Part shown: positions 35,001 to 35,664 of the stretch, piece after piece | How the letters are laid out: every line of letters starts with the position of its first letter | Position numbering within the stretch: position 1 is the stretch's first letter | Assembly: GCA_023382755.1 (NCBI GenBank) | Contig: JAHDWR010000001.1 | Span: forward strand, 1 to 61,799 | DNA from: Dehalococcoidia bacterium | Lineage (GTDB): Bacteria; Chloroflexota; Dehalococcoidia; Tepidiformales; Tepidiformaceae | Direction: 5' to 3' | DNA length: 61,799 bases | Translations under genes and position numbers: made by a program | The notes under the pieces: generated by a model | Seen by the model: the letters and a program-made list of their open reading frames with translations, nothing else | Told to the model about the DNA's origin: nothing | Database searches by the model: none

Positions 35001-35664
35001 CGACCGCGGCAGGCGCTGCGGCTAGCGGCTGTTGGACCGGTCGTAGCCTGGCGGCCGGCGCCACGACCATCGGGCCGCGCTCCGCGTGTACCTGCATCGG
35101 CTCGATCAGCCGTCCGCAGAGCGCGAAGTTTTGCAGGCCGGGTGGCACCACGATGCTACCGGCGGAGAGCTTTCCAGACTCCAAGTCATCTCGGAGTTCA
35201 CGTAGCAGTCGCCCGAGGACGTTCGCGCCAACAAGTGTCCCATCAGGCTGCGGCTTGGCTCCCCAGAACTCGTCCCGCCGAGACTCCTCGACGATGGCGC
35301 CATCTCCTGTCGCCAAGAGCAGTCGGCCGAAGCTCTCCGGGTGCTGCGCGAGCTTCACTCGCAGCGCCCACCGCATGATGGTGATGCGGACTTCGTCCCA
35401 GTCGGGTCGCGTGTCCTTGCGATGCGGCTTGGTCCGCATCTTCGCCGTCATCGGGCTCGCTTCGGCGAGGACGATCCGCTGGAGCTCTGGCCTGTGCGGG
35501 AAACGGCACGCCTGGTACAGAGCCTCGGAGGTCCGGATGCGAATCCCGTTGAGCTCCAGCGGGAATCCGGCCGCCATGTTGGAAAGGCCTCCGAACCGCT
35601 CGGTGGTCTTGCGGAAGACTGCGCACTCTTCGCGCCGGTAGGTCCTGGTGCCGGGATCTTTCAC
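32080..35664 (-). CDS. NADAR (YbiA-like N-glycosidase) domain fused through a Pro/Ala linker to a DUF1156-type DNA methyltransferase
   Basis: [37 protein letters not shown]...[24 protein letters not shown]...[12 protein letters not shown]. DUF1156 N-terminus [45 protein letters not shown]. AdoMet motif [16 protein letters not shown]. Catalytic motif [14 protein letters not shown]. Start proposed at GTG 35664, overlapping the upstream TGA (GTGA); the track ORF begins at 35760. Confidence 0.8.
   Translation of the reverse strand: [1194 protein letters not shown]

Follow-up and report, generated by a model that had tools for sequence, protein, structure and literature searches.

An in-frame NADAR–HmaB fusion and its PRTase-CE partner in the Hma operon of a Dehalococcoidia bacterium

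The locus described here is most closely related to two defence systems that have been described separately. DS-32 is a two-gene anti-phage system of E. coli that consists of a phosphoribosyltransferase (PRTase, WP_000097610.1) and a NADAR protein (WP_032260665.1, 203 aa) and was validated in the DefensePredictor study (sequences from Table S8, PMC13092281). Hma is a known defence system, a DUF499-centred, BREX-related type 1 system in which the gap between hmaA and hmaB is a published hotspot for the insertion of defence genes; Septu, Ppl, PARIS, AAA_21, and GmrSD have been reported as inserts of the hma region. The DNA under study is a stretch of 61,799 nt from a Dehalococcoidia bacterium (contig JAHDWR010000001.1), called the window in the following. 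It carries an Hma operon whose hmaA–hmaB hotspot holds a PRTase-CE gene and, behind it, a NADAR reading frame that runs straight into hmaB. All coordinates are positions in the window, and residues of the fusion protein are numbered from the GTG start at 35664.

The known substrates of NADAR enzymes are N2-ADP-ribosyl-guanine and 5-phosphoribosylamino-pyrimidines, and the bond concerned connects C1′ of the ribose with an exocyclic amine of the ring. NADAR removes ADP-ribose from guanine in DNA, and YbiA cleaves N-ribosyl intermediates of the riboflavin pathway. The residue in the last strand defines the NADAR families, being Glu in the YbiA, Asp in the BC4488, and His in the phage family. In DarT1–NADAR operons the toxin gene comes first and the NADAR gene second. 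The PRTase effectors of type III retrons are characterized by a 5-phosphoribosyl pyrophosphate (PRPP) motif together with a PNNxP signature, and a winged-helix domain is associated with them.

The NADAR–HmaB reading frame

An uninterrupted open reading frame (ORF) on the minus strand, 32080..35760, encodes a NADAR domain, a linker and the methyltransferase HmaB in one frame. The GTG codon at 35664-35662, which overlaps the stop codon TGA (35661-35663) of the upstream PRTase-CE gene as GTGA, is likely the start of this ORF, because its product shows conserved NADAR residues from aa 9 onwards, because gene callers picked it in three of four independent assemblies and because the far ATG (35760) would overlap the PRTase-CE gene by 100 nt. 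On these three observations the longer ORF from the ATG was rejected. The product starting with GTG (32080..35664, minus strand) has 1194 aa. In the fourth assembly (L088) the called start lies 29 codons downstream of the GTG and yields a product of 1165 aa; this start at M30 was rejected as it would remove invariant NADAR residues. An earlier, sequence-only reading of this DNA had drawn attention to the block 35145-35664, which corresponds to aa 1-173 and thus to the NADAR block.

HmaB is recognized by the PADLOC model over aa 247-1184 (E=2.4e-298) and by the Pfam domain DUF1156 (PF06634) at aa 256-327 (E=1.5e-21), and the S-adenosylmethionine motif FDPFAGGGS and the catalytic DPPY motif can be read in the translation. 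The methionine with which DUF1156 proteins canonically begin is codon 245 counted from the GTG and codon 277 counted from the upstream ATG; the sequence-only reading had put the canonical DUF1156 N-terminus about 290 codons into the ORF. Met245 is kept in all of P0001, P0002, P0003, P0005, P0008, P0099, L093, and L094, and it is possible that internal initiation at this codon produces free HmaB alongside the fusion.

As the other two frames stop near the end of NADAR and Met245 and its GGAG motif are retained, it had to be excluded that two separate genes are joined by an artefact, either a frameshift in the sequencing or an error in gene calling. Stops occur in frame +1 at codons 186 and 214, the in-frame methionine behind GGAG is where hmaB formerly began, and GC-rich DNA has few stop codons. 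Moreover, NADAR and its partner gene are separate in two related loci (L041, L072). Nevertheless, this explanation is largely refuted and we give it next to no weight. The stretch of 4616 nt from the start of PRTase-CE to the stop of HmaB shows 100% identity between four independent assemblies from different samples, two from NCBI and two Logan runs. In the L093/L094 lineage, at 82% nucleotide identity, the Pro/Ala linker has diverged and contains indels, and still the frame and the canonical sequence at the start of DUF1156 are kept. In other species the fusion is in frame in 45 cases, and in-frame NADAR::DUF1156 ORFs, for which the sequence-only reading had proposed a search, were found in eight further species genomes. 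In a first protein search 16 clusters bore annotations of PF08719 together with PF06634, many of which are short owing to contig ends or low coverage of the assembly. The linkers between NADAR and DUF1156 in other fusions measure 42-69 aa and are not conserved in sequence. The earlier observation that no stop codon separates NADAR and DUF1156 holds, and judged by frame conservation NADAR and HmaB are one polypeptide connected by a disordered linker of ∼50 aa and not the product of a frameshift.

The NADAR domain is complete. Pfam NADAR (PF08719) matches aa 17-161 with E=1.2e-23 and 84.6 bits against a cutoff of 35.1, covering profile positions 2-162 of 163, and in a sequence search of the PDB the domain matches E. 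coli YbiA (2b3w, E=8e-19) and the NADAR protein of P. nicotianae (8bau, E=4e-5). An AlphaFold2 (AF2) model built on 51 homologues has a predicted local distance difference test score (pLDDT) of 86-98 over aa 1-195, with a drop to below 50 for aa 205-245 and higher values again in the DUF1156 domain. With this model the sole significant Foldseek matches are YbiA 2b3w (probability 1.00, TM-score 0.76) and the ADP-ribose-bound 8bau (probability 1.00, TM-score 0.68). A full NADAR domain in frame at the N-terminus of the methylase, as the earlier reading had proposed, is thus confirmed by Pfam, by the match to YbiA and by a structure prediction that might have spoken against it and instead gave the YbiA fold for aa 1-195.

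The published ligand contacts of 8bau and the catalytic residues of the E. coli C7 NADAR were mapped onto the domain via the PDB alignments. E47, E126, D131, W134, W89, and R93 are all present, and within the subfamily these residues vary hardly or not at all; alignments of 47 and 51 members show no exception at E47 and E126. According to this mapping E47 and E126 are the glutamates at the distal ribose, and W89, R93, D131, and W134 contact the phosphates. E47 aligns with E48 of YbiA and E43 of the P. nicotianae protein, and E126 with the last-strand glutamate E125. Because the last-strand residue is Glu, we assign the domain by its sequence to the YbiA family and not to the DarT1-linked BC4488 family. 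One catalytically implicated position differs: the lysine conserved in other NADARs (K55 in YbiA, K50 in the P. nicotianae protein, K95 in E. coli C7) is replaced by arginine (R54; codon 35503..35505), and this arginine is invariant throughout the PRTase-linked NADAR subfamily, DS-32B included. Apart from R54 the alignment to YbiA and NADAR antitoxins finds the catalytic residues retained (E47, E126, D131, W134), and the domain is predicted to be a catalytically intact YbiA-type N-glycosidase. The ribose and phosphate contacts of 8bau are kept as well, and its contacts to the adenine and the proximal ribose, Y84 and D86, correspond to D84 and R86 in the window NADAR and to P and R in YbiA. The YbiA-like character of these positions may be a hint to the substrate.

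The PRTase-CE–NADAR cassette and its carriers

The PRTase-CE protein carries a PRPP loop (YVYLDDGIFTGN) and an RNCPNNAP motif. Among 46 homologues the pattern Y-x-D-D-x4-G is invariant and T-G-N-R near-invariant, this being the PRPP loop of type I PRTases; also invariant are the motif R-N-C-P-N-N-x-P and the residues D134, D135, G140, P305, N306, and P309. A predicted β strand (aa 129-137) ends in this loop, which leads on to a helix (aa 141-151). Searching Foldseek with the AF2 model (pLDDT 85, predicted TM-score 0.85) gave weak matches to type I PRTases, the best being a uracil phosphoribosyltransferase with E=0.015; a sequence search of the PDB with the family profile gave no meaningful match. 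The PADLOC model PRTase_III-A matches the C-terminal PNNxP region. We infer that PRTase-CE is a PRTase similar to those of type III retrons with an intact PRPP loop.

Both proteins are homologous to those of DS-32. In BLASTP comparisons the window NADAR and DS-32B are 44% identical over 183 aa (E=2e-56), and between PRTase-CE and DS-32A the identity is 27% over 335 aa, covering the full length (E=2e-35). To follow the pair through other genomes one genome per GTDB species was scanned, which yielded 577 genomes with a relative, and the best 80 loci were analysed by tblastn and ORF extension. These loci are the closest relatives of the window NADAR and not a random sample, and ORFs and fusions were called from frame continuity and tblastn rather than from curated annotation. 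PRTase-CE lies directly upstream of NADAR in 72 of the 74 testable loci, in 40 of 48 testable IMG/VR contigs and in all five sampled contigs; among these five are Hma operons, one type I restriction-modification (R-M) operon and, from Marinobacter and a cyanobacterium, pairs that stand alone. By gene order and homology, PRTase-CE followed by NADAR is a mobile, conserved two-gene cassette homologous to DS-32.

The second regularity concerns the C-terminal partner of NADAR. In type I R-M contexts, where the nested order is hsdM-PRTase-NADAR::hsdS-hsdR, NADAR and HsdS share one ORF in 37 of 38 cases, and in Hma contexts NADAR and the DUF1156 methylase do so in eight of nine. Pfam finds NADAR and Methylase_S in one frame in Alkalilacustris brevis (L019), Swaminathania salitolerans and a gammaproteobacterial metagenome-assembled genome, and NADAR and DUF1156 in one frame in Crenalkalicoccus roseus and two others. 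On a crude neighbour-joining tree without support values the DUF1156-fused NADARs appear in at least four places. Free-standing PRTase–NADAR pairs with no methylase nearby make up about 32 of the 80 loci. Two free-standing NADARs (L085, L037) have a C-terminal helix-hairpin-helix (HhH) tail (HHH_3, E=7e-18 and 4e-15). About 18 cyanobacterial NADARs (L007, L013, L018, and others) have in common a C-terminal domain of ∼65 aa (…TDKELAELF…MRxWLxRAVELGKVxKLSKPVRY…), which has sub-threshold winged-helix matches only and is probably a winged-helix-like domain. In seven of the 80 loci NADAR has a short tail with no recognisable DNA-binding module. As far as can be read from these architectures, NADAR has repeatedly been fused to DNA-recognising partners, and the methylase is one of several carriers besides HsdS, HhH and winged-helix-like domains.

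These observations bear on the function that the sequence-only reading had suggested, namely that NADAR is an eraser placed on the methylase and that a ribosyl-type base modification is made and removed in this system. Taken further, NADAR would be integral to the methylase and remove a ribosyl mark used by Hma in distinguishing self from non-self. It is true that the fusion is under selection, as the frame is kept despite indels in the linker, and that eight of the nine Hma contexts have it. However, canonical Hma systems contain neither NADAR nor a ribosyl writer, NADAR co-varies with PRTase-CE and not with HmaB (72 of 74 loci versus 9 of 80), and the PRTase–NADAR pair is self-sufficient for defence in E. 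coli. Given these facts we regard a role in the service of the methylase as very improbable; the conserved gene pair, the homology to DS-32 and the methylase-free loci all tie NADAR to PRTase-CE. What survives of the suggestion is that a ribosyl-type base adduct may be made and removed at this locus, which is still the best working model, with PRTase-CE as the putative writer. The analogy to DarT that had been drawn does not fit: no adjoining gene encodes an ADP-ribosyltransferase, and Pfam and PADLOC detect no such domain in the neighbours PRTase-CE, TmtA-like, HmaA, and HmaC. A DarT1–NADAR toxin–antitoxin system was rejected on the lack of an adjacent DarT and on E126 in place of the BC4488-type Asp, and a housekeeping YbiA for riboflavin damage control on the gene context. 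A retron was rejected as well, since Pfam finds no reverse transcriptase (RT) domain in any gene of the operon, the msr/msd noncoding RNA lying outside this search.

The slot upstream of the PRTase gene is occupied by varied defence cargo, among it GmrSD-like proteins, DUF3644 with a restriction endonuclease, Schlafen/AlbA_2 and MqsRA, and in the window a TmtA-like gene. In 15 type I R-M loci (L016, L019-L021, L031, L034, L035, L038, L040, L045, L053, L058, L060, L068, L069) a GmrSD_N protein of 598-600 aa, similar to type IV restriction enzymes, is encoded between hsdM and PRTase, which results in a three-layer nested defence operon. The 598-aa gene was considered as a part of the module and rejected, as it codes for a GmrSD-like enzyme and is other defence cargo. 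The NADAR::DUF1156 protein of one Hma locus (L001, 10001..12498) is 525 aa long and does not reach the DPPY motif; an HNH_2 gene comes next, and the methylase is thus truncated or remodelled. Finally, five IMG/VR contigs of 231-485 kb (L111, L112, L113, L115, L117; match 6001..∼6555) encode stand-alone NADARs of the subfamily with ∼50% identity and the catalytic residues kept, and there is no PRTase upstream. These NADARs of large viral contigs may be a phage-borne antidote against PRTase–NADAR defence.

Proposed function of the cassette

The architecture of the cassette might give a hint how the two proteins work together. We suggest, as a moderately probable model, that PRTase-CE is a toxic writer that uses PRPP and that NADAR is the eraser or antidote, tethered to DNA by the HmaB carrier. 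The toxic effector would use PRPP to attach ribose-5-phosphate to a nucleobase nitrogen, most plausibly to an exocyclic amine such as N2 of guanine, in DNA, and NADAR would cleave the resulting N-glycosidic bond. NADAR is proposed as the eraser because the PRTase would form the same type of bond as is cleaved in both known NADAR reactions, and the substrate is placed on DNA because the carriers of NADAR are DNA-binding (HsdS, DUF1156 methylase, HhH, winged-helix-like). The order of the genes, with the presumed toxin first, matches that of DarT1–NADAR operons. The DNA-binding carrier, HmaB in the window, would keep NADAR on the chromosome, and upon infection the balance would tip to the PRTase so that replication is blocked. 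Possible triggers are phage DNA beyond the reach of the tethered eraser or an inhibition of the methylase complex. Methylation by HmaB and restriction by Hma would proceed independently of the PRTase–NADAR pair.

The fusions could also be explained in a different way, with PRTase–NADAR as a back-up abortive infection system that monitors the R-M or Hma methyltransferase complex. Phage anti-restriction proteins that bind or disable the HsdS or HmaB complex would at the same time disable the fused NADAR and thereby release the toxicity of the PRTase. A precedent is PrrC, which acts in abortive infection, is encoded within a type I R-M operon and is held by EcoprrI. The nesting of the cassette in type I R-M and Hma operons agrees with such a guard, as does the fact that in 45 of 47 such loci NADAR is fused to the subunit building the methylation and recognition complex, and the further genes found in this slot are likewise defence genes. 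Nevertheless, about 32 of the 80 loci occur and DS-32 itself works without an R-M partner, the generic DNA-binding tails (HHH_3) on free-standing copies fit DNA targeting better, and an effect of the state of the complex on NADAR has to be assumed. We therefore consider guarding of the complex distinctly unlikely.

Neither enzyme needs to act on DNA if PRTase-CE uses PRPP on a free base and phage replication is starved of nucleotides. NADAR would then detoxify an aberrant nucleotide, or both enzymes would run a futile cycle hydrolysing PRPP to ribose-5-phosphate and pyrophosphate. For such a metabolic effect speaks that the PRTase of Retron-Eco11, once activated, lowers PRPP by ∼50%, that the known substrates of YbiA are free 5-phosphoribosylamino-pyrimidines and that the window NADAR resembles YbiA at the adenine-contact positions. 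On the other hand, the repeated and apparently independent fusions of NADAR to HsdS, DUF1156 methylases and HhH domains would be left unexplained, and guanine-ADP-ribose in DNA has been the substrate of every NADAR tested to date. Nucleotide starvation without a DNA substrate thus appears unlikely to us, though less so than a guard of the methylase complex.

Several points weigh against the tethered writer–eraser pair. The acceptor of PRTase-CE may be a DNA base, RNA, a free base or a protein, and its role as the toxin of the pair is presumed. Related PRTases point to toxicity at the metabolite level, as Retron-Eco11 depletes PRPP and ShosT disrupts purine metabolism. DS-32B of E. coli and the NADARs of seven of the 80 loci end in a short tail in which no DNA-binding module can be recognised. 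The apparent independence of the fusions comes from the crude tree mentioned above, and the 80 loci represent close relatives. NADAR activity is assumed for a subfamily with the Lys to Arg change at R54, a change which is conservative. DNA-binding domains of antitoxins can moreover serve the autoregulation of their operon rather than the targeting of a substrate.

A more specific version of the writer–eraser model states that PRTase-CE is a DNA phosphoribosyltransferase that depends on PRPP and not on NAD+, that it places ribose-5-phosphate on a DNA base, likeliest N2 of guanine, and that the carrier-fused NADAR is the dedicated eraser. We put this forward tentatively and regard it in this strict form as rather doubtful. 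If true, this way of modifying DNA would be previously undescribed. The versions embedded in R-M systems would couple a methyl mark for self and an erasable phosphoribosyl mark for damage in one DNA-scanning complex, and large phages that have NADAR but no PRTase would use NADAR as a counter-defence.

The Hma operon and comparison with known systems

The features of the locus are compiled in Table 1. The operon has the order HmaA, TmtA/sacsin-like, PRTase-CE, NADAR::HmaB, HEPN::HmaC, and its genes are co-directional and tightly spaced.

Table 1. Coordinates of the cassette, the Hma operon and further regions of the window
Feature	Position	Strand	Evidence or remark
PRTase-CE phosphoribosyltransferase-like gene	35661..36695	-	Pfam PF24390 E=5.6e-52; directly upstream of NADAR
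NADAR unit, aa 1-195	35080..35664	-	Pfam, YbiA match, AF2/Foldseek, DS-32B identity
Pfam NADAR core, aa 17-161	35182..35616	-	PF08719
NADAR C-terminal β tail, aa ∼165-195, conserved	within 35080..35664	-	
Pro/Ala-rich disordered linker, aa 196-244	34933..35079	-	pLDDT <50 for aa 205-245
Met245, retained ancestral HmaB start codon	34930..34932	-	GGAG 11 nt upstream
HmaB core, N6-adenine methyltransferase	32080..34932	-	PADLOC HmaB, Pfam DUF1156, motifs in translation
DUF1156 N-terminal domain	34684..34899	-	PF06634
HmaA, SNF2 helicase with C-terminal NOV_C nuclease (Hma effector)	40998..44576	-	PADLOC E=0, full length; Pfam SNF2-rel_dom, Helicase_C, NOV_C
HmaC, DUF499 ATPase with extra N-terminal HEPN_Swt1	28707..32075	-	PADLOC E=0 over aa 165-1120; HEPN_Swt1 aa 11-123
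Sacsin/HATPase (Tiamat TmtA-like), 1398 aa	36805..41001	-	PADLOC TmtA E=7.6e-63, Pfam SACS
Gabija-like region	10132..13428	+	
Peptidase_M78-UvrD region	20015..23467	-	
Conjugation region	1257..8550	-	

The HEPN_Swt1 domain of HmaC lies outside the PADLOC HmaC model and is also present in L002 and L093; an association of HEPN with DUF499 is mentioned in the paper on BREX-related systems. The match of the sacsin-like protein to TmtA covers its N-terminal ∼400 aa. Its gene overlaps hmaA with ATGA and is kept in a relative lineage of 74% identity (L093). It was rejected as a third component of the module, since most other Hma loci bearing the cassette have no TmtA-like gene, and is probably independent cargo in the hmaA–hmaB hotspot. 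The 109-nt gap upstream of PRTase-CE contains an ORF of 31 aa (MSDSEPTKPDHERSFMKDHFRQLLTLAGEPT, 36717..36812, minus strand), which is called by gene callers and is open at the same length with about half of the residues identical in the lineage of 82% identity (L093-L095); it may encode a leader or regulatory peptide or have arisen by chance. A scan for promoters and terminators from 34800 to 37000 gave nothing above shuffled expectation. The operon genes bear no compositional sign of a recent insertion, their GC content at third codon positions ranging from 0.69 to 0.82.

Elsewhere the window encodes a Gabija-like pair (an AAA_15/AAA_21 ATPase and a UvrD helicase), a Peptidase_M78-UvrD-PD-(D/E)XK protein and conjugation genes, namely a Replic_Relax relaxase, a TraG/TraD-like coupling protein and a TraG P-loop ATPase. 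These genes share the window with the Hma locus, which thus forms part of a defence island on what is probably a conjugative element.

Compared with DS-32, both proteins are homologous, a co-oriented PRTase gene directly precedes NADAR, and the PRPP loop, the PNNxP signature and the catalytic NADAR residues are shared. DS-32 differs in being a free-standing pair whose NADAR ends in a short tail; the window cassette is not a free-standing two-gene operon but is nested in the Hma operon, and its NADAR is covalently fused to a 950-aa methyltransferase. Phage protection is known only for the E. coli DS-32 system. In agreement with Hma systems, HmaA, HmaB, and HmaC are present in one operon (PADLOC E=0, 2.4e-298, and 0) and in canonical order, and the cargo is located in the hmaA–hmaB hotspot. 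However, canonical HmaB begins with DUF1156 and has no NADAR, whereas HmaB of the window is preceded by NADAR.

The DS-32-type pair and the Hma system are thus already known, each separately. In the literature searched, there is no report of the pair being nested in Hma and type I R-M operons with its NADAR systematically fused to HmaB or HsdS. The Hma paper does not have the PRTase–NADAR pair among its listed inserts of the hma region, and neither "NADAR" nor "PRTase" appears in the text of the survey of BREX-related systems. Full-text searches for "PRTase-CE" found no paper, those for NADAR with restriction-modification nothing relevant and those for NADAR with PRPP or phosphoribosylation nothing. 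Public domain annotations do show the NADAR–carrier architecture, which is therefore unreported but not unseen.

DarT1–NADAR and YarT–YbiA resemble the cassette in that the gene of a toxin acting as writer comes before that of a NADAR eraser, which cleaves an N-glycosidic bond between ribosyl and base, and YarT–YbiA has in addition a NADAR of the YbiA family with the last-strand Glu, as in the window. In contrast, the toxin of both systems is an NAD+-dependent ADP-ribosyltransferase, whereas its counterpart here has the fold of a PRPP-type phosphoribosyltransferase, and DarT1-linked NADARs have Asp in the last strand where the window NADAR has Glu. PrrC is an anticodon nuclease that associates non-covalently with a type I R-M complex. 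As with the cassette, the toxic module lies inside a type I R-M operon and has a physical link to the R-M complex; however, in the system described here it is the presumed antidote half and not the toxin that is covalently fused to HsdS or HmaB.

The PRTase itself is most similar to those of type III-A retrons (Retron-Eco11), ShosT and PsyrT. They have in common a divergent type I PRTase core with PRPP loop and PNNxP signature, both found in PRTase-CE (YVYLDDGIFTGN, RNCPNNAP), an association with a DNA-binding (winged-helix) module, a defensive role and the consumption of PRPP. On the contrary, the partner in the window is a NADAR hydrolase and not RT-msDNA or a DprA-like antitoxin, and there is no adjacent RT. 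DS-32 has been validated recently, and the fusion pattern of the locus and its relatives places the NADAR on DNA, which narrows the question of what defensive PRTases target to the testable idea of a PRPP-dependent phosphoribosylation of DNA bases that NADAR reverses. If this proved true, PRPP would be a second donor for reversible ribosylation of nucleic acids alongside NAD+, and the finding may clarify the action of the PRTase toxins of type III retrons, ShosT and PsyrT.

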